NCBI GenBank assembly: GCA_963760165.1
Contig: CAVXBO010000005.1
Coordinates: 11,459-75,458 of the forward strand
Source: an uncultured Acidobacteriota bacterium
GTDB lineage: Bacteria > Acidobacteriota > Terriglobia > Acidiferrales > UBA7541
Direction: 5' to 3'
DNA length: 64,000 nt
Positions 21,652 to 31,502 of this stretch are shown piece by piece. Both the position numbers and the translations under genes were made by a program. Numbering within the stretch: position 1 is the first letter of the stretch; every line of letters starts with the position of its first letter. A model generated the notes under the pieces. The model was not told the DNA's origin. It ran no database searches and saw only the letters and a list, made by a program, of their open reading frames with translations.

Positions 21652-23103
21652 ATGGCGACTGACATCATCATGCCCCAGATGGGCGAAAGCATTTTCGAAG
21701 GCACCATCACCAAGTGGCTCAAGAAGCCGGGCGAGAAGGTGGAACGCGACGAGCCGCTCTTCGAGATTTCGACGGACAAGGTTGACGCGGAGATTCCTTC
21801 TCCCGCGGCAGGCGTGCTGAGGGAGATCAAGGTTTCCGAGGGACAGACGGTTCCCATTCAGACTGTTGTCGGCGTGATTGACGGGGCTGGCGGCGCCGCG
21901 GCATCCGCATCAGCGCCCGTGCCGGCGAAACCGGAACCACGGCAACAGGAAGCGCGTCAGCGCGAAGACGAAAAACCGGCGCCCGCATCCGCTCCGAGCA
22001 AAGCGGAGGCCGCCAAGGCCGACGCCCCAAAGGCCGCCGCTGCTCAGCCGCCGGCCCCAGCGCCGCAGTCTGCGCCCCAACCTGCGTCACGACCCGTTGC
22101 CGCAGCTGGCGCGGCTGCTCCGCCGCAGCGTCCGGGAGCGGAAAAAGTGCGCAGCTCTCCGCTGGTGCGGCGCCTGGCCAAGGAAAACAATGTCGATTTG
22201 ACGCAGGTCCCCGGCACTGGGGCCGGCGGCAGAGTAAGCAAGAAGGACATTTTGTCCGCGATGGAAGGCGGTGGCGCAGCCAGCCAGCAAGCGCCGACGC
22301 CATCGTATGCGCCTCCGGCCCAGCGTCCGGCTCCTCCGCCTCCAACGTCTGCCGGAGGCCAGGCGCATGCCGTTCTAGAGACAGCGGTGCCGCGCGAGCG
22401 CATGTATTTCGGAAATTACAGCGTCGAGCCCATGAGCGTCATGCGGCAGAGGATTGCCGAGCACATGGTCATGTCCAAGCGCGTGTCCCCGCACGTCTAT
22501 TCCATCGACGAGGCCGACGTCACCGGGCTGGTCAAGCTGCGCAATCAGAAAAAGGAGGAATTCGAGCGCACCACCGGTTCGAAGCTGACCTTCATGCCCT
22601 TCTTCATTCGCGCCGCGGTGGAGGGTTTGCGCGCTTTTCCCACGGTGAATTCCTCCGTGGACGGCACGAACATTGTGCTGCATCGCGAATGCAACATCGG
22701 CATCGCCGTAGCGCTCGATTGGGGCCTGATTGTCCCGGTGGTGAAAAACGCCGAGGAGAAGAATTTCCTTGGACTGCAGCGCGCCATCAACGATTTGGCG
22801 GAGCGCGCTCGTTCGAAGCGTCTCAAGCCTGAAGAAGTCCAGGAGGGCACTTTCTCGATCACCAATCCCGGCGTGTTCGGCGGTTTGATGGGCTTGCCGG
22901 TGATCAACCAGCCCAACGTCGCGATTCTGGGCCTTGGCACCATTGAGAAAAGGCCTGTGGTCGTCGATGACGCGATCGCCATCCGCTCGATGGTCTATCT
23001 CACGCTGAGCTACGACCATCGCGTGGTGGATGGCGCCATCGCGCACCAGTTCATGGGCAAGGTCAAACACTTCCTCGAGAACTGGACCGAAAGCGTCCTT
23101 TAG
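21652..23103 (+). CDS. dihydrolipoamide acyltransferase (E2)
   Basis: Lipoyl domain (EISTDKVDAEIPSP), Ala/Pro linkers, subunit-binding domain (SPLVRRLAKENNVDL) and catalytic DHRVVDG. Confidence 0.93.
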   Translation: MATDIIMPQMGESIFEGTITKWLKKPGEKVERDEPLFEISTDKVDAEIPSPAAGVLREIKVSEGQTVPIQTVVGVIDGAGGAAASASAPVPAKPEPRQQEARQREDEKPAPASAPSKAEAAKADAPKAAAAQPPAPAPQSAPQPASRPVAAAGAAAPPQRPGAEKVRSSPLVRRLAKENNVDLTQVPGTGAGGRVSKKDILSAMEGGGAASQQAPTPSYAPPAQRPAPPPPTSAGGQAHAVLETAVPRERMYFGNYSVEPMSVMRQRIAEHMVMSKRVSPHVYSIDEADVTGLVKLRNQKKEEFERTTGSKLTFMPFFIRAAVEGLRAFPTVNSSVDGTNIVLHRECNIGIAVALDWGLIVPVVKNAEEKNFLGLQRAINDLAERARSKRLKPEEVQEGTFSITNPGVFGGLMGLPVINQPNVAILGLGTIEKRPVVVDDAIAIRSMVYLTLSYDHRVVDGAIAHQFMGKVKHFLENWTESVL

Positions 23104-23126
23104 AGTTCCCCAGCCAGTCTCTCCAG

Positions 23127-23152
23127 CGGGGCGGGATCGCTCTCCCGCCCCG
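23127..23152. terminator. hairpin terminator between convergent E2 and DUF3037 genes
   Basis: Perfect 10-bp stem CGGGGCGGGA/TCCCGCCCCG with a 6-nt loop, followed by TTCCTATTT on the plus strand. Confidence 0.55.
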
Positions 23153-23180
23153 TTCCTATTTCAGGTGGTTGGCGGGAAGC

Positions 23181-23990
23181 CTATTGCAGGCGCAGGCGCA
23201 AGCGCTCGGCGAACATCTCCACTTGCGGCAGCGGAACGATGCTGATCTTCTGCTCATCGAACAGGCGCACTACGAACTGGTGCCTGGGATTCTCCCGCTC
23301 AGGCGCGACCTCGGTGATGGCCGCGAACTCCGAATTGGCGTGGCGTGCGCGAATGCATTCCGCGGTGTAGGCCAGCACTTTGGCCTGCGCCGGGTCTCGT
23401 GCCAGCGACAGCGCTTGCACATATCCGCGCGTGCCGTTGTAGCGGTAGCCGTAGTCGATGCGCAGGGGGTCGCCGGGCTGCGTGAATTGTTCCGCCCGCA
23501 CGCTTTTTTCCATTTTCGCGAGGATGCGATGCCTGCGGAAAACGTCACTCAGTTTCATGCGAATCCATGCGCGGGTATTTTCCAATATCGTGGCGCCCCG
23601 ACCCGTGCGCGCCGGCACGGCCACGTGGTTGTGATAGAGCCGCTCCAGTTCCGCGTCAAAGTCTTCGCTCATCACCGCCTTGCGAGGGCTGAGTTGCAGA
23701 GTATTGGAGAGTGTCTGTTCCATTTTTTCGATCCACGCGGCGCTTGCGCCCGTGGAGGCAAGTTCTGCTTGGAATGAGGCGGGAAGAGCGCGCAGAAGCG
23801 CGTCGTCGGCGTTCGGATGCAGCCTGCGAACGCGCAGGATTTCCGCATCGTCCTCGATGAGCCGCGCGCGGGCCACTTGTTTCTGCGGATCCTCGAGGAG
23901 AATCCCAACGTTCACCCATTCGTCGCGGATCAGATTCGGTGTGTAGCGCAAAACGCGATAGGTCAGCGTGCTGCGATTCGATTCATTCAT
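23181..23990 (-). CDS. DUF3037-like protein
   Basis: 269 aa. The N-terminus YRVLRYTPNLIRDEWVNVGILLEDP matches my recollection of the DUF3037 signature. Its start lies 3 nt after the upstream kinase stop. Confidence 0.65.
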   Translation of the reverse strand: MNESNRSTLTYRVLRYTPNLIRDEWVNVGILLEDPQKQVARARLIEDDAEILRVRRLHPNADDALLRALPASFQAELASTGASAAWIEKMEQTLSNTLQLSPRKAVMSEDFDAELERLYHNHVAVPARTGRGATILENTRAWIRMKLSDVFRRHRILAKMEKSVRAEQFTQPGDPLRIDYGYRYNGTRGYVQALSLARDPAQAKVLAYTAECIRARHANSEFAAITEVAPERENPRHQFVVRLFDEQKISIVPLPQVEMFAERLRLRLQ

Positions 23991-23993
23991 GTT

Positions 23994-24791
23994 TCACGTC
24001 CAGTGGGGAAAGGGCATACGCGAAGAGTTCTTCGCGCTCAGAACCAGCTCCCGTACGAGCTTGCGCCTGCGAAGCAGCTGCTCCAGCAAGCGATAGAGGG
24101 CGTCCTGGTCGAAATTGTACCATTCGGGAGGAATCTCCCGCGCAACCTCATCCAGCACGCTTTCATCCATCCGCTTTTCCACGCGCTCGATCCAAGGCTC
24201 GAATACTTCCCAGCCGCGCACTGTTTCGTAGACCTGCGAGCGGGCGTAAATTCCGCGCAGCGGAGCGTCGGGGAAATTCCATTCCGCAGCATTGAAGCAA
24301 AAGCCGTGATCGATCATCACCGCGCGATAGCGCTCCGAATCCCGCGCGCGCAAGAAGATCGCTTGCCTGCCGTTGGTGTTGCAGGTCCATTTGTCGAAGA
24401 CGAAAATACCGCAAAAGTCCGCCAGATTCTCGACCTGGCGCAATTGCTCGTCCGGCAGAAAGTCGTATACCGCGGTTGTTGCCGGGTGGCCGGGGTATTG
24501 CGAGCCGAATTCCAGACCCGCCGCGCATGGCACTCTGCCGCGGCCAAGCTGCACCACCAAATCCTCGGTCAACGCCACCATGTCCGGGCGCACCTCGACG
24601 ACCGCCGCGCCCGCCACCGACACCCCGATTCTTGCCGCCAATCGTGTGCCCAGCAATTCGTTCGCCAGAATCCGCGTCCCCTGCGGATTGTTCTGGAATT
24701 TGACGATATAGAAGTTTTCGTCTTCGCAGCGCATCAAATGGGACTGCGCGCCACCGCGCATTCGTCGGATGTGTTCGATAGCCAGCGGCAT
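23994..24791 (-). CDS. HipA-like (HipA_C-type) kinase-fold protein without HipA N-terminal domains
   Basis: 265 aa with an N-lobe-like YIVKF...NELLG, FVFDKWTCNTNGRQ at the catalytic-loop position and MIDHGFCF at the metal-binding position. Confidence 0.65.
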   Translation of the reverse strand: MPLAIEHIRRMRGGAQSHLMRCEDENFYIVKFQNNPQGTRILANELLGTRLAARIGVSVAGAAVVEVRPDMVALTEDLVVQLGRGRVPCAAGLEFGSQYPGHPATTAVYDFLPDEQLRQVENLADFCGIFVFDKWTCNTNGRQAIFLRARDSERYRAVMIDHGFCFNAAEWNFPDAPLRGIYARSQVYETVRGWEVFEPWIERVEKRMDESVLDEVAREIPPEWYNFDQDALYRLLEQLLRRRKLVRELVLSAKNSSRMPFPHWT

Positions 24792-24937
24792 CGCGCCGTT
24801 ATGCTAGCCAGCGTTCCGGCGCGCGGCAAGAAAAACATTTTCAATTTGGGAACGAGTACTGAGTCGATAAGGCGCTGAAAATTCCGAAGAGCCGAATTGT
24901 TTCAAGATGGCACACGCGCTTCAATGCCTTTTGCGCA

Positions 24938-26815
24938 TCACACTTTCAATCCGATCCAACGCATCAGGTCCAAAGCGTTGCTCTTCGGGACCACCCCGTC
25001 GCGCAATTTGTAATCAAAACTCATCTCCCCGTTCACAATCTGATCCTCGAAGTGAACGTTACGAACGTTTCCGTCGAGCGTTGCCTGGATCCGCGTAAGC
25101 GCCAGATCGTGAGTCGTTACCATGCCCACGGCGTCCCGGGCGAGCAGCGCGTGCAGCAGGGCTTCTGAGCCAATCTGCCGGTCGTGCGAATTCGTTCCCT
25201 CGAGCAATTCGTCAAACAGGAAAAGGAGCGGACCATCCTTTTCCGAAAGGGCCGCCACTTGGCGGATGCGCAGAATCTCCGTATAGAAATTTGAGCGGCC
25301 CTCCTGCAGCGAATCCGTGCTGCGGATTCGCGTGCCCAGCGCCATCCGGCACAACCGCAACGACTTCGCGCGCACCGGAGCCCCGGCCATCGCCAACACC
25401 GTGTTGACCCCCACCGTCCGCAATAATGTGCTCTTCCCGGACATGTTCGAACCACTCACCAACAGCACTCGTGTTCCGTCGCCAAGGTGCACGGAGTTTC
25501 GCACGCATTTCGCGGCGGGAATCAAGGGATGTCCGAGCTGCTCGCCGGCAAAAAAAGCGCGCCCTTCCCCGGACTTCGTGAATTCCGGAAAACAATCGTC
25601 CGGATGCTCGTAAGCGTATGCCGAAAGCGAAAGCAGCGCTTCGAACTCGGCCACCGCGTCGATGCAAAATTGCGCTTTGGGTCCCTCCCGCTTCCTCCAG
25701 GAATCGGCAGCGAAGCCAAGCTGAATTGTGTACAGCAAAGGCAGTTCGATGATCTTCATCAGCAGGCTGTCCCGCGCATCAATCCAATTCACCAGGTGCG
25801 CCAGCTTTTCCATGGTGCGCGAAGCGGGTCGCGGCCCGGCTCGCAGTTCGCGCTGGAAACGGCACAGCTTCTCCGAGGCAAATTCCCCGGTTTCGATCTG
25901 CCTCAGTATTTTCGAAAAAATAAGCAGCCCATCTTCGTTGCAGCCAATCCCGGCAATGGCCGCTTCCGCACGCTTGCGCAACCAGGCATAGACGCCGATG
26001 TTGATGATCAGCACGGCGAAAAACGGCCAGTACTTTGACCATCCGCTTGCGACCCATACGACTGTGGCGGCAATTTGCAGGAGCGCCAGCGCCACGGCGG
26101 TGGCTCGTAGGGCAGGACTTGCCAGCTTGGGAGGCGTCTCGGCCCACGAAACCAGCGCTCGAGCGTCGACTGTTCCTACCAGACCAGCGCCAAGGAGAAA
26201 CGTATTTTCCCGGAGATCCAGTTTTTCGCCAAGCTCGCTCACGATGCTCTGCCTCTCGCGAATCTCCGCCACGGACGCCGGCGACAGCAGCCAATTGGCG
26301 AGGCATTGCTCGCCCATCGGCGTTTTCGCCGACGATAAGAGCTCGAACAGGCCGCCGCGTCCAAAAATGTCCAAGTCATCCGCGTAGATGTGGCCTGCAT
26401 CGCGGAACCGCTCTCCGCATGCCCCGCTTCCGCTCCAGCGACCCTCGATCCTTGCCAAGCCGCGTTCGTAAAACGCCGCCGCGTGTTCCGCGCGGGTACG
26501 CGCGCGAATGGTGAGCTCGTGCCACACGGCGAACGCAATGTATGTGGCGACCGGAACCAGAAGCCAGTAGGGCGACACTCGATGACGGAAAAGCGCATAC
26601 CATGCCAGCGCCAGTCCCGTCACAATCACCAGCAATTTGCAATTGCCAATGCGGATGTGCACGCGTTCCCGCCCGGCGCGCACTTGCATTCGAGAGCTCC
26701 GTCGTGCTGCATATTCTATCGATGGCGCTTTCAATTCGTTCTTTTGCTCCTGCGCAGGCAACGTGCCGCGACCGCGGGTTTCAGCCAAACCGCACCAGTC
26801 TACATCGAGTAACAC
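24938..26815 (-). CDS. MutS-related ABC-type ATPase (MutS domain V only) with a membrane-spanning N-terminal half
   Basis: Walker A GSNMSGKSTLLRTVG and Walker B LFLFDELLEGTN. Several hydrophobic helices in the N-terminal half. No mismatch-binding domain seen. Exact start uncertain. Confidence 0.8.
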   Translation of the reverse strand: MLLDVDWCGLAETRGRGTLPAQEQKNELKAPSIEYAARRSSRMQVRAGRERVHIRIGNCKLLVIVTGLALAWYALFRHRVSPYWLLVPVATYIAFAVWHELTIRARTRAEHAAAFYERGLARIEGRWSGSGACGERFRDAGHIYADDLDIFGRGGLFELLSSAKTPMGEQCLANWLLSPASVAEIRERQSIVSELGEKLDLRENTFLLGAGLVGTVDARALVSWAETPPKLASPALRATAVALALLQIAATVVWVASGWSKYWPFFAVLIINIGVYAWLRKRAEAAIAGIGCNEDGLLIFSKILRQIETGEFASEKLCRFQRELRAGPRPASRTMEKLAHLVNWIDARDSLLMKIIELPLLYTIQLGFAADSWRKREGPKAQFCIDAVAEFEALLSLSAYAYEHPDDCFPEFTKSGEGRAFFAGEQLGHPLIPAAKCVRNSVHLGDGTRVLLVSGSNMSGKSTLLRTVGVNTVLAMAGAPVRAKSLRLCRMALGTRIRSTDSLQEGRSNFYTEILRIRQVAALSEKDGPLLFLFDELLEGTNSHDRQIGSEALLHALLARDAVGMVTTHDLALTRIQATLDGNVRNVHFEDQIVNGEMSFDYKLRDGVVPKSNALDLMRWIGLKV

Positions 26816-27905: not shown

Positions 27906-28781
27906 TTAGACAGTCAGGGCCTCGTTTTTTAGTACACCTGCAAAAGCCAAGAAGGCCTCGTGCGGGGTGCGATTGCGGACTCCGCGATGAGGCCGGTCGT
28001 GATTGTACTCCTCGATCCAACGAGCGATCGAGGCACGCGCTTCTTCCAAGCTGCGATATTCCGCCGTCCAGACTTCCTCTTCCTTCAGACTGCGATGGAA
28101 CCGTTCGATGTAGCTGTTGCCCTCCGGGTGATGATACGCCGTCCGCCGGTGGGTGATGCCGAGCCGCCCGAGCGTCTCCAAGAAGCGCGAAGAAGTGAAC
28201 TGCGTGCCGTTGTCCGTCGTGAGCGTCAGATTCGCCTCGCGGCTGCCCTCGGGCAGCCGTCCGAGTACGGCCTGCTCCACCGCAGCGAGCGCGTCTTCGG
28301 TCCGGCAGCGCTGCGAAAGATTCCAACCCACGATCTCCCGCGTGCAGCAGTCGATCACGCACACCAGGTACGCCCAACCCACCGCCGGCCCCGCCCAGAT
28401 CTTGGTCATGTCGGACTGCCAGATCTGATTCGGCCAGGCGGCTTCCACACGGCCCCACTCTTTCTTCCGTCGCGCACGCAAACGCCGCGAGCGTACCAGC
28501 AACCCACGTTCGCGCATCACCCGTAACACCCGCTTGTGATTCACCGGAAGGTTTTCTTTTCTCCGCAGCCACCAAGCGACGCGGCGATATCCGTACGCGG
28601 GTTTTTCCCCGCAGGCCACGACGATCTGCTCGTCATAGCGTCGGTCGGCCCGACTGCCTCGCGGCCGCTTCCGGTAGTACAGACTCGACCGGCTGATGGC
28701 CAACGTCGCCGCCACCAGCGTGGCCGTGTAGCCTTGCGTCACCATCTCTCGTGCCTGGGAGTGAGCCGCACCACAGCTCAC
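27906..28781 (-). CDS. IS3-family transposase OrfB (DDE/rve integrase core)
   Basis: 291 aa with IWQSDMT, TDNGTQFTS and YNHDRPH motifs. Confidence 0.9.
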   Translation of the reverse strand: MSCGAAHSQAREMVTQGYTATLVAATLAISRSSLYYRKRPRGSRADRRYDEQIVVACGEKPAYGYRRVAWWLRRKENLPVNHKRVLRVMRERGLLVRSRRLRARRKKEWGRVEAAWPNQIWQSDMTKIWAGPAVGWAYLVCVIDCCTREIVGWNLSQRCRTEDALAAVEQAVLGRLPEGSREANLTLTTDNGTQFTSSRFLETLGRLGITHRRTAYHHPEGNSYIERFHRSLKEEEVWTAEYRSLEEARASIARWIEEYNHDRPHRGVRNRTPHEAFLAFAGVLKNEALTV

Positions 28782-29065
28782 TCCCCCACGACGTTTTTTA
28801 GGATTTCGATCTCCAGCGATTTTCGCCCCAGCGTTCGTTCCAACTGCCGGATGCGATGGTCCTTCTCGGTTTCCGCCGCGGCAGCGCTTCTCCCCCCAAG
28901 CGCTGCCTTCGCTCCCTGCTCCGCTTCATCCTTCCAGCGATAGAACAGATTCGGAGCGATCCCGTGACGCCGACACGTCTCCGAGACGTTCCCGCTCTTG
29001 ATGCCTTCCTGCACGATCTGCCACTTTTCTTCCGGGGATCGATCTACGCGTGGTTTCCTGCCCAT
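28778..29065 (-). CDS. IS3-family transposase OrfA (HTH)
   Basis: 95 aa: PRVDRSPEEKWQIVQEG...ETCRRHGIAPNLFYRWK plus a leucine-zipper-like C-terminus. Confidence 0.9.
   Translation of the reverse strand: MGRKPRVDRSPEEKWQIVQEGIKSGNVSETCRRHGIAPNLFYRWKDEAEQGAKAALGGRSAAAAETEKDHRIRQLERTLGRKSLEIEILKNVVGE
28793..28799 (-). promoter_or_regulatory. -1 programmed ribosomal frameshift heptamer A-AAA-AAC (OrfAB fusion)
   Basis: In orfA frame the sequence is CTA AAA AAC. A -1 slip reads ...ILKKRRGGVSCGAAHS, which continues in the orfB frame. Confidence 0.55.
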
Positions 29066-29133
29066 GTTGCCTCCTGTTTGGAGGCCCCGATTCTACCTAA
29101 CTGAGGTGTCCAGTTTTAGCGGGGAGCACTACA

Positions 29134-29414
29134 GTTCTCTTCAACATCGCTTTATAACCGAAGTTTTCGCCCAGCAGAACTCCCAACACGACCACCACGA
29201 TAGCAACGGGCGTAAGCTCCAGAACTAGCCGAAATGATTCGACCGATACAATTCCGTCGCCTAGCGATGCACAAATGATCGCAAATGGGACTCCTCCGAA
29301 AATGAGCCCGAAAAAGATAGGCCCACTTATAGGATGGCCGAAAAATAGCCGAGTCTTTCGTAACAGTTCGCCTAGGGTACTCAATTCATGAATCCCCTTT
29401 CCTATCTCACCCAA
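29134..29414 (-). pseudogene. 5' part of the IS-split multi-TM gene (putative RHS immunity gene)
   Basis: TTG start 3 nt after the RHS stop. Hydrophobic helices are present. The ORF-track C-terminus (TVVLPAKTGHLS) is read from the IS inverted repeat. Confidence 0.8.
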
Positions 29415-29417
29415 AAT

Positions 29418-31283
29418 TCAGGGGCAAGGGTGTTCGGGATCGTGGGCTGAACACGCCCCCCACTGGGCATTCGCGCCGGTCTCCTGTTTCGTGAATTTCA
29501 GTATTTCGTTGATTTGGGCCTTAGTTAAGCCTTTCTGTTCGCCTAGCTCCGTTACCTCTTCAGCGAAATTATCCAATATATTTTTCGTTGCCTGCGTGGC
29601 AACCTTGATTTCCTCGGGGCTCGCAGCGGCCTCGATTAGCGGATGCTCTGATGCCGATTCAAACTGATGTCGGACAATATCTTGCGCAGTATGAGATGCT
29701 TGGCCCAAGTCCACCAGCGCATCCTTGGCGTCACCTGCGACGGCTGCTTGTGCGGCGTCCAAAGTCTTGGTAAAGATGAAGTCGGTTGCCTGCTCCTTGG
29801 CTTCTTCCACGGTTTGGCCGTTGGCCGTTTCTCCATGCTGAGGGTTCTCTGCGGTTGACCAGACATGGTTTAGGTACGGCACTCCACCTGCCCAATTACG
29901 CCAGTTGTCCATGGCAGAATTAGCCTTCGCGGCAACACTGCTCGCCGCTTGGCTGTATCCAGCTGCGAGCATTGCATTCATCTGGATTCTCTCATGATCA
30001 CGGTCGAGGAAGTGCCCGCTTTGATCCCTGTACGTCACAGGATTGTTTAGGGAATAGGCATATTTGTTCCAACTCTGAGGATCAGCCAAAAACTGCTCAA
30101 GCACAAGTTGTGAGCGGGTCGGTTGCAGGGAATCTGGTGACATGAATCGTCCAATGGTAGACGAATTGTAGCGCGCGCCGAAGTCGTCGAGGCCGGATTC
30201 GGAGTCGCGTAGCTTGCCGATGAACTTGTAGATCGGACTGGTGCTGTTCACAAAAGCGTTTTCGCGGCCGAAGGGATAGAAGTCCGCGTCGTAACTCAGC
30301 GAAGCGGTGCTTCCTCCGGAGGCAATTTCCTCCACCTTCCGCGAACTCCCAAGTTGATCGGCGAAGTACCCGAAAATAATTCCAGAGGAATCCGTCGAAA
30401 GCAGCCGCGCAATGCGCTGCCCGCCGAAAAATACGTAGTCGTTCTCCACGGCTCCGGTCAGGCCGGTCTCCTCCAGCGGGTCGCTCGACGTGCCATACCA
30501 ATACAGCGTGCCATTACTCTTCTCGACGCGATTGCCGTCGCCGTCGTACGTGTAATTCACCCCTGCCGAGCTAGTGGTTATCTGGTTTTTCGCATTATAC
30601 GTGTACGTGGCTCCGCCCGTGCCCGGTATCGTCGTCAGGTTCCCTGCTGCATCGTAGGTGTATCCGCTGATCTGATTCGCCGCGGTCACGCTGACCCTCA
30701 GATTATCCGGCTGAGCGCACGAAGAATATCCCGAGGGCGATGTAATTGTGAGCAAATTGTCCCATGCGTCGATGCCGTACTGCTCACCCCAGCAGTTCGT
30801 TCCGCTGGTGTTCACACTGCCTCCGATGGAAATCCGATTCAACTGGTCGTACGTGAACGTCTGTGACCACACCGAGCCGCAATTCCCGCTGGCAATCCGT
30901 GCCAAATCATCGTGGCTGTAGGTGCACGTCTGCGTGTTTGTGCTGTTAAACGCATCCGTGATGGCGAGTTTTCCCAGCGTGCCATTTGCATTCCAAGTCA
31001 AAGCGCCGGTCACCGATTTGCCATTCACGTTAAACTGATACTGCGTAATGCGAAACGTGTTAGGGTCGAAAGTGAAAGCGTCGCTATCGGACGAACCCAA
31101 AGTCAGCGCCGTCACTTCACTGGCTGGGTTGTAGCTCGTGCTGGTGACGGGATTCTGACCACTTCCGGCGGAAACTGTGCTCACACGCCCTTCGCCATCT
31201 ACTCCGTTCGTGATTCCAGGCAGGTTGCCTAGATTGTTCGTCTCCAAGTCTGGAACTCCGTTGGCCCAGTAGCTTTGCGTCAC
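29418..31283 (-). CDS. RHS/YD-repeat protein, 5'-truncated orphan module with a C-terminal domain of unknown function
   Basis: YD repeats (YTYDAAGNLTT, YTYDGDGNRVEK) and RHS core end (FYPFGRE...FGARYNSSTIGRFMSPD...NKYAYSLNNPVTYRDQSGH). The open frame runs upstream across the repeat boundary at 31322 without a credible start. Confidence 0.85.
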   Translation of the reverse strand: MTQSYWANGVPDLETNNLGNLPGITNGVDGEGRVSTVSAGSGQNPVTSTSYNPASEVTALTLGSSDSDAFTFDPNTFRITQYQFNVNGKSVTGALTWNANGTLGKLAITDAFNSTNTQTCTYSHDDLARIASGNCGSVWSQTFTYDQLNRISIGGSVNTSGTNCWGEQYGIDAWDNLLTITSPSGYSSCAQPDNLRVSVTAANQISGYTYDAAGNLTTIPGTGGATYTYNAKNQITTSSAGVNYTYDGDGNRVEKSNGTLYWYGTSSDPLEETGLTGAVENDYVFFGGQRIARLLSTDSSGIIFGYFADQLGSSRKVEEIASGGSTASLSYDADFYPFGRENAFVNSTSPIYKFIGKLRDSESGLDDFGARYNSSTIGRFMSPDSLQPTRSQLVLEQFLADPQSWNKYAYSLNNPVTYRDQSGHFLDRDHERIQMNAMLAAGYSQAASSVAAKANSAMDNWRNWAGGVPYLNHVWSTAENPQHGETANGQTVEEAKEQATDFIFTKTLDAAQAAVAGDAKDALVDLGQASHTAQDIVRHQFESASEHPLIEAAASPEEIKVATQATKNILDNFAEEVTELGEQKGLTKAQINEILKFTKQETGANAQWGACSAHDPEHPCP

Positions 31284-31407
31284 CCAAAAGTATCCACCCG
31301 AATGCGGAGTGGACTCGTAGCCCCCCCAAATTCCGTTGAAGCTGGCTAAAGAGCGCTCTGTCGCAAAATCGAGTCATAAGCTACAATGTTTCACGAACCC
31401 CGATCAC

Positions 31408-31502
<95 letters not shown>

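Follow-up and report, generated by a model that had tools for sequence, protein, structure and literature searches.

The question raised by the 64,000-nucleotide stretch of DNA analysed here (the window, from a metagenome-assembled Acidobacteriota genome of the Candidatus Acidiferrales) is whether a pair of adjacent genes, the first encoding a HipA-like kinase and the second a DUF3037 protein, represents an undescribed system as the initial annotation had proposed, and whether a kinase with Asn in place of the catalytic Asp is likely to be functional. We find that the module is not undescribed. Judged by sequence, the pair belongs to a group of acidobacterial (Candidatus Acidiferrales) orthologues of the PDC-M66/DS-6/HipAD module, and our verdict is that it is a divergent, chromosomally fixed variant of a known defence or toxin–antitoxin (TA)-type module. 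The genuinely new point is the Asn variant of the kinase, which is widespread, selectively maintained and chromosomally fixed in the lineage to which the window belongs.

The kinase and DUF3037 gene pair

The pair and the parts of it referred to below are as follows.

23994–24791, minus strand: kinase-fold open reading frame (ORF), 265 aa, HipA_2 family
23181–23990, minus strand: DUF3037 protein ORF, 269 aa, two-domain
23988–23996, minus strand: junction TGA-aac-ATG, a 3-nt gap from the kinase stop to the partner start
24372–24374, minus strand: codon AAC for Asn140, at the site of the catalytic Asp
23622–23960, minus strand: DUF3037 domain of the partner (residues 11–123), Pfam PF11236
23184–23594, minus strand: C-terminal domain of the partner (residues 133–269), predicted restriction-endonuclease-like (PD-(D/E)xK-type) fold

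Both ORFs and the gap between them were re-found as first described, with the motifs YIVKF, NELLG, FDKWTCNTNGRQ and MIDHGFCF all in the kinase and YRVLRYTPNLIRDEWVNVGILLEDP in the partner. We compared the pair with related loci (the best 80 of at least 594 stretches from GTDB species-representative genomes, all 80 from Terriglobia, plus four metagenome contigs and the window), and in 84/85 of these the DUF3037 gene lies directly after the kinase gene, which bears out the earlier description of a conserved and apparently translationally coupled module. The 3-nt gap is the commonest spacing (41/76 related loci), and the junction is probably one of termination–reinitiation coupling between kinase and partner. 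As database searches found many homologues of both proteins (7486 for the kinase and 1761 for the partner) and the arrangement recurs in nearly every related locus, the pairing is not due to chance. It should be noted that the GTDB scan was seeded with the clade alignment, a diverse kinase alignment being too divergent to serve as a seed, and the best 80 loci are therefore biased towards close relatives.

The initial annotation had looked to HipA_C and DUF3037 as the families involved, and of these only the second was recovered. In the partner residues 11–123 alone match DUF3037 (PF11236, E 8.2e-16). The kinase belongs instead to HipA_2 (PF20613, E 1.1e-15, 58 bits against a cut-off of 27), with HipA_C reaching only 16.3 bits, which is under the Pfam cut-off of 30.5. 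The PADLOC models PDC-M66A and PDC-M66B match the kinase (6.2e-13) and the partner (2.1e-11, residues 8–162, profile positions 3–165 of 281), respectively, and both families are also PHROGs (PHROG 3162 for the kinase at 2.6e-19, and PHROG 5137 for the partner), while neither protein matches an NCBIfam model. Searching PDB sequences with the kinase, or with its profile, gave nothing above noise, and the link to CtkA, HipA and Fam20C came solely from a fold search, in which the AlphaFold2 (AF2) model of the kinase (predicted TM-score, pTM, 0.76) found CtkA (3akk, E 1e-5, TM 0.59) as its best Foldseek match, followed by Fam20C, HipA and CotH.

Comparison with known systems

Both families have been reported together before. 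DUF3037 genes are strongly associated with HipA-like kinases under the PADLOC label PDC-M66, and in the Retron-Sda1 operon deletion of the kinase leads to the loss of defence against phage Bas51, removal of the DUF3037 gene causes toxicity, and the parts of the retron can be dispensed with; the roles proposed are that the kinase is a toxin and the DUF3037 protein its neutraliser, providing a standalone defence against Bas51 (PMC12548924). DS-6, an E. coli prophage system validated in the DefensePredictor work and renamed HipAD, loses defence in the DS-6A D139A mutant (named in the supplement, which has both sequences), and AlphaFold3 predicts contacts between DS-6A and DS-6B and weaker contacts between DS-6B and DNA (PMC13092281). 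The DS-6 proteins themselves are encoded beside cI in Escherichia phage PhiR5_1 (PV340545.1), where they carry the labels 'HipA toxin' (WP_000389051.1) and 'HipD antitoxin' (WP_000210934.1); they match the PDC-M66 models at scores like those of the window proteins (6e-15 for HipA), and relatives of DS-6A are found on 25 plasmids, many of them annotated as 'HipA family kinase' and 'DUF3037'. The Payne et al. 2024 preprint does not mention HipA. The PDC-M66 and DS-6 matches agree with the defence or TA-type class suggested earlier, and together with the Retron-Sda1 pair and the GenBank phage annotation they are the reason why the claim to an undescribed system does not hold.

The likeness to DS-6/HipAD is one of architecture as well as family. 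In each case a short (~250–265 aa) HipA_2 kinase is followed by a protein of ~270 aa in which DUF3037 forms the N-terminal domain and another domain comes after it, the two genes are on the same strand, in the same order and coupled (by a 3-nt gap in the window and by a 4-nt overlap in DS-6), both proteins match PDC-M66A/B, and the FDKW..N.[D/N] and IDH motifs are shared. The differences are nevertheless considerable. The window kinase is only 26% identical to DS-6A (E 5e-12), the partner shares only 25% identity with DS-6B, confined to the DUF3037 domain, the catalytic loop reads N-G-R-Q in the window and D-R-T-L-T-D-K-G-G-N in DS-6, and the C-terminal domains of the partners are not alignable by sequence. 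DS-6 is furthermore a moron beside cI in a lambdoid phage, whereas the window pair is fixed among housekeeping genes. PADLOC would label the window locus PDC-M66 because both models match, although this is a bioinformatic candidate class and not a mechanism, and the Retron-Sda1 pair, which consists of the same two families, differs in adjoining a type III retron reverse transcriptase (RT) and ncRNA, there being no retron RT near the window pair.

Other HipA-like systems are more distant. E. coli HipBA shares the kinase superfamily, with the G-rich loop (RGGAQS in the window, resembling VAGAQEK in HipA), the ATP-binding Lys and the catalytic-loop position in correspondence, but three features of the E. 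coli system are missing here, namely the N-terminal domain of ~150 aa in HipA, its loop D309-G-H-A-K-N314 and the upstream helix–turn–helix (HTH) antitoxin HipB. HipBST has separate ORFs for HipS, which is like the HipA N-domain, and for HipB upstream, whereas the only partner here is the downstream DUF3037 protein. The absence of HipA N-terminal domains and of a HipB-type partner had been recognised in the initial annotation, and we confirm it: the kinase has only 265 aa, and upstream of it we found no HTH/HipB-like or HipS-like ORF in the 146-nt intergenic sequence, which has stops in all three frames. CtkA from Helicobacter pylori (3AKK) is likewise a short HipA-like Ser/Thr kinase without the HipA N-domain, but is only 14–15% identical to the window kinase, and is a secreted proinflammatory kinase that is not known to have a DUF3037 partner.

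Asn140 and the kinase active site

The kinase keeps its G-rich loop (R12-G-G-A-Q16), ATP-binding Lys (K31, in YIVKF) and Mg-binding Asp (D161, in MIDHG), and has the catalytic loop D133-K-W-T-C-N138-T-N140-G-R142-Q143. In alignments of kinase homologues K31, D133, N138, R142, Q143 and D161 are invariant, and the nucleotide-binding residues G13, G14, Q16, K31 and D161 are invariant or nearly so. N140 aligns with D139 of DS-6A (FDKWILNAD139RT) and with the corresponding Asp of a P. syringae plasmid kinase by BLASTP and MAFFT, and falls on D309 of E. coli HipA by hhalign. The initial annotation had suggested that the catalytic Asp, His, Lys and Asn of HipA might all be replaced. This is correct for the Asp, but the His, Lys and Asn of the HipA D-G-H-A-K-N loop are missing throughout the HipA_2 family, and their absence is no sign of inactivity because DS-6A also lacks them and yet needs D139 for defence.

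Residue 140 is Asp (D-type) in 124 and Asn (N-type) in 21 of 151 sequences (the query and 150 cluster representatives at 50% identity). N140 is found in nearly all of the 120 closest kinase homologues and in 84/85 of the related loci. It is not exclusive to this lineage: with a D-type representative as the query, 96 N-type and 22 D-type proteins were retrieved, most of them from Terriglobales. We estimate at least 12 D/N changes within the acidobacterial subfamily (UPGMA/Fitch, using a crude tree), and D/N pairs occur at 79–82% overall identity. Position 140 is the sole systematic difference between N-type and D-type sequences, and in this comparison no compensating acidic residue was found in the N-type proteins. 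Both genes are under purifying selection, with dN/dS values of 0.04–0.16 for the kinase and 0.05–0.21 for the partner.

N-type kinases are also found in mobile settings. Relatives at 47–55% identity, with N or D at position 140, occur in prophage-like loci in the order terminase, HipA_2, sometimes a 23S_rRNA_IVP/bAvd-like gene, DUF3037 and portal, and N-type pairs at 48–55% identity with the same two-domain partner are present on prophages and viral contigs. Of 12 pairs from IMG/VR viral contigs ten are N-type, and the IMG/VR partners align to the window partner over its full length. In Terriglobales, an N-type kinase gene also lies 17 nt after the gene for a DSPc dual-specificity phosphatase (L089/L090 5493–6795; Pfam 3.4e-15), downstream of an SLT-LysM gene and with no DUF3037 gene, and this DSPc–HipA_2 pair is possibly a kinase/phosphatase version of the module in the same chromosomal neighbourhood.

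On these findings we reject the idea that Asn is confined to the syntenic Acidiferrales clade and reflects a one-off domestication, given the Terriglobales N-types and the repeated D/N changes, as well as the N-type pairs in prophages and viral contigs. Four observations speak against decay of the gene, namely the toggling between D and N, the N-types in prophages, the phosphatase-paired N-type and the strong constraint elsewhere in the active site; they also make it less convincing to read the kinase simply as dead. The earlier suggestion of a pseudokinase is thus right in that the Asp site is Asn, but a dead kinase is not established given the D/N interchange and the presence of N-types in prophages. 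In our reading the gene of the Asn lineage has not decayed but encodes an ATP-binding kinase that still functions, with either attenuated activity or an altered mechanism.

We also note some details of these relatives. The slot between the terminase large-subunit and portal genes was seen in five Terriglobales loci (L092 6001–8189, L093, L096 5001–7093, L091 6001–7773 and L094 5001–6811), where a gene for the 23S_rRNA_IVP/bAvd-like four-helix protein often lies between the kinase and DUF3037 genes. In another locus (L095 5001–6622) a D-type HipA_2 kinase gene has a 4-nt overlap with a downstream gene for a DUF932 protein, near an AAA_13/AAA_21 ATPase, and DUF932 is here another alternative kinase partner.

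The DUF3037 partner protein

In the AF2 model of the partner (pLDDT 85) a disordered linker (residues 127–136) connects two domains. In the DUF3037 domain Y11, R15, Y16, P18, N19, R22, D23, E24, W25, N27 and G29 are near-invariant among 74 orthologues, and a comparison with HipD/DS-6B by hhalign gave a probability of 94% over residues 9–127 only. The protein is probably an antidote or regulator like HipD.

The C-terminal half has no Pfam family, but is conserved in the same 74 orthologues at T170, G173, D174, D179, Y182, N185, G186, G189, R198 and K204. Foldseek matches to it in the PDB include BstEII (5.8e-4), the nuclease domains of Cdn1, Can2 and Card1, and VC1899, although these are weak (TM 0.25–0.35, E 1e-2 to 6e-4) and a canonical (D/E)xK motif was not seen in the predicted third strand. 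Searches of BFVD found two full-length viral protein matches (4e-11 and 1.7e-9) and then many 'endonuclease' proteins. The second domain of DS-6B has been assigned to DUF1829 by HHpred at a probability of 0.78. Hmmscan does not detect DUF1829 even in the validated HipD, and its absence from the window partner is therefore non-discriminating.

Proposed promoter and possible terminator

Around the pair we identified the following elements.

24801–24842, minus strand: conserved promoter block, predicted from conservation
24830–24842, minus strand: operator-like palindrome GAAAATGTTTTTC within the promoter block
24824–24829, minus strand: -35-like TTGCCG, followed by a 17-nt spacer
24801–24806, minus strand: -10-like TAGCAT, 9 nt before the ATG
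23127–23152, no strand: stem-loop GGGGCGGGAG/CUCCCGCCCC with a 10-bp G+C stem

The block is kept in seven close loci, and in the clade has the order TTCCC..TTGAAA(A)TGTTT(T)C, CTTGCC, 17 nt, TAGCAT, about 9 nt, and ATG. More widely, 80/85 loci have TAG[CGT]AT within the ~110 nt that precede the conserved RMRGG motif (residue ~10), and in the sequences inspected it again has the TTGAAA(A)TGTTT element upstream of it. Scans of positions 22900–25100 for consensus promoters and terminators called nothing, and as the block is under the threshold of the consensus scan our promoter proposal rests on conservation. We infer a dedicated promoter for the pair, with a near-leaderless transcript and an operator-like palindrome. 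The element TTCCC-N3-4-TTGAAA(A)TGTTT(T)C (window 24830–24852; L001–L086) is kept despite saturated synonymous sites between the genomes, and is a candidate operator or UP element.

The strong hairpin reported earlier beyond the pair is indeed present, and lies between the pair and the 2-oxoacid dehydrogenase E2 gene that converges on it. The 81-nt stretch around the hairpin has a folding energy of -37 kcal/mol (z = -3.4 relative to shuffled sequences), but the hairpin has no U-tract and the terminator scan makes no call; it is possibly a bidirectional terminator.

Chromosomal locus

An SLT-LysM gene lies upstream of the pair in 68/85 loci and convergent 2-oxoacid dehydrogenase E2/E1b genes downstream in 57/85. 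The immediate upstream neighbour in the window (24938–26815, minus strand) encodes a 625-aa MutS-like protein with MutS domains III and V only, in which no mismatch-binding or Smr domain and no PADLOC match were detected. A MutS-III/V-like neighbour is found in only 7/85 loci (the window and six related loci, which are its close relatives), and as the pair has its own conserved promoter block an operon with this gene is unlikely. We note that the sole D-type kinase among the best 80 of the at least 594 GTDB loci (L082 2307–6846, 59% identity) is not accompanied by a DUF3037 gene, and that genes for a serine resolvase and a GGDEF-LuxR protein are found close to it.

Proposed mechanism and alternative explanations

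The reading we prefer, with a confidence only a little above even, is that the two genes encode a functional toxin–antidote pair of the PDC-M66/HipAD type, in which a kinase effector is neutralised by the downstream DUF3037 protein. From the homology, architecture, conservation, purifying selection and Asp-to-Asn position that we observe, we infer the following. The kinase-fold protein would by homology be a growth-arresting effector, which the two-domain DUF3037 protein would bind and neutralise, while the restriction-endonuclease-like C-terminal domain of the latter probably contacts DNA, e.g. the palindrome at its own promoter, leading to autoregulation. Both genes would be expressed from one near-leaderless transcript, with the 3-nt junction tying antidote synthesis to kinase synthesis. 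On phage infection, or under some other stress, the kinase would be released and may then phosphorylate an essential target, causing abortive infection or growth arrest. This toxin–antidote reading is based on the PDC-M66 matches, the DS-6-like gene order and coupling, the 26% and 25% identities to the DS-6 proteins, and the published phenotypes of DS-6 and Retron-Sda1. That the kinase gene is functional is indicated by the low dN/dS, by the invariant active-site residues and by position 140 being the only difference between D-types and N-types, and the reading is further supported by the N-type kinases found in conflict settings, namely the prophage slots, the IMG/VR contigs and the pairing with DSPc, and by the conserved promoter and palindrome. 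Coupled translation and probable autoregulation would also agree with such a model.

A number of observations nevertheless weigh against it. Asp-to-Asn changes at the catalytic site inactivate or strongly slow most kinases, and the Asp that is required for DS-6 defence is the residue that is Asn in the window kinase, and functional equivalence to DS-6/HipAD can therefore not be asserted; the PDB entry for the structure of a HipA D309Q mutant is also among the Foldseek matches. No likeness of the partner's C-terminal domain to that of HipD was detectable by sequence using hhalign. The setting, housekeeping and syntenic, is also unlike that typical of defence systems: no PADLOC matches were found in the window flanks, which consist of housekeeping neighbours with no defence island or mobile element, the G+C content of the pair (60.4%) is close to that of the window (58.8%), synteny at the locus holds over the 80 GTDB species genomes compared, and the window kinase has no tblastn match in phage and plasmid collections.

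Much of this would be explained if the pair were a domesticated pseudokinase module, in which D140N has lost phosphotransfer but kept ATP binding, and which serves Acidiferrales as a near-core pair in housekeeping regulation and not in phage defence, for example in nucleotide sensing or in growth or dormancy control jointly with the DUF3037 protein. We give this an appreciable chance, though one well short of even. Asn at the catalytic Asp in 84/85 loci, the strict synteny with SLT-LysM and E2/E1b genes, the relatives in at least 594 GTDB stretches, the host-like G+C content, the strong purifying selection and conserved promoter, and the lack of plasmid or phage tblastn matches are all in keeping with such a role. 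However, the more distant N-type pairs on prophages and viral contigs have the same two-domain partner, the 12 or more D/N toggles, even between close sequences, fit tolerance better than a one-off loss, an N-type kinase paired with a DSPc phosphatase implies real phosphorylation, and all the other active-site residues are kept. A related and rather speculative possibility, which we think unlikely, is that throughout the acidobacterial HipA_2/DUF3037 radiation the catalytic Asp is a natural D/N switch of toxin strength or chemistry, with the Acidiferrales N-type copy having been domesticated from phage defence into a host growth or dormancy regulator; this copy would be vertically inherited and near-core, with its own leaderless promoter and operator-like palindrome.

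The replacement of the catalytic Asp in the kinase, the restriction-endonuclease-like fold matches (BstEII, Can2/Card1/Cdn1 and the viral 'endonuclease' proteins) and the conserved D174, D179 and K204 might instead point to the partner as the effector, its PD-(D/E)xK-like C-terminal domain being a nuclease gated by an ATP-binding, kinase-like signal sensor. We consider this improbable, as the fold similarities are weak, the predicted third strand shows no canonical (D/E)xK motif, and the polarity in Retron-Sda1 is the opposite, with DUF3037 deletion being toxic and kinase deletion abolishing defence (PMC12548924). A canonical HipBA- or HipBST-type persistence TA system is very improbable indeed: the kinase fold is related to that of HipA and the G-rich loops are alike, but HipA_C is under its cut-off, the protein has 265 aa compared with 440 aa and so no HipA N-terminal domain, and there is no upstream HTH HipB or HipS, the partner here lying on the downstream side and bearing no relation to HipB. 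Such systems are already refuted by the architecture of the pair.

Significance

HipA_2/DUF3037 systems (HipAD, PDC-M66) were validated only in 2025–2026, and in soil Acidobacteriota the module has undergone a very large radiation, with at least 594 GTDB stretches and thousands of metagenome proteins. Within this radiation the Asp needed by the E. coli system has repeatedly become Asn while the other active-site residues and the partner remain under strong selection, and one lineage has been fixed at a housekeeping locus with sister lineages sitting between prophage terminase and portal genes. This provides a natural experiment on whether the HipA_2/DUF3037 family acts by classical phosphotransfer, and on how a mobile toxin–antidote defence comes to reside in the chromosome as a gene pair. 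As regards annotation the locus is ordinary, and should be labelled PDC-M66/HipAD-like.

Variable regions near the pair

A patch ~3 kb upstream of the pair in the window (27906–31500) is variable, and includes an IS3-type transposase (rve, HTH_21; 27906–28781), an RHS-repeat protein (29418–31283) and tRNA-Ser(GCU) (31408–31500). In one relative (L001 9708–14761) a NIPSNAP gene, small ORFs and a phage-type integrase lie between the pair and the syntenic TPR/CofD genes, and this integrase insertion indicates that the site beside the pair can take up mobile DNA.

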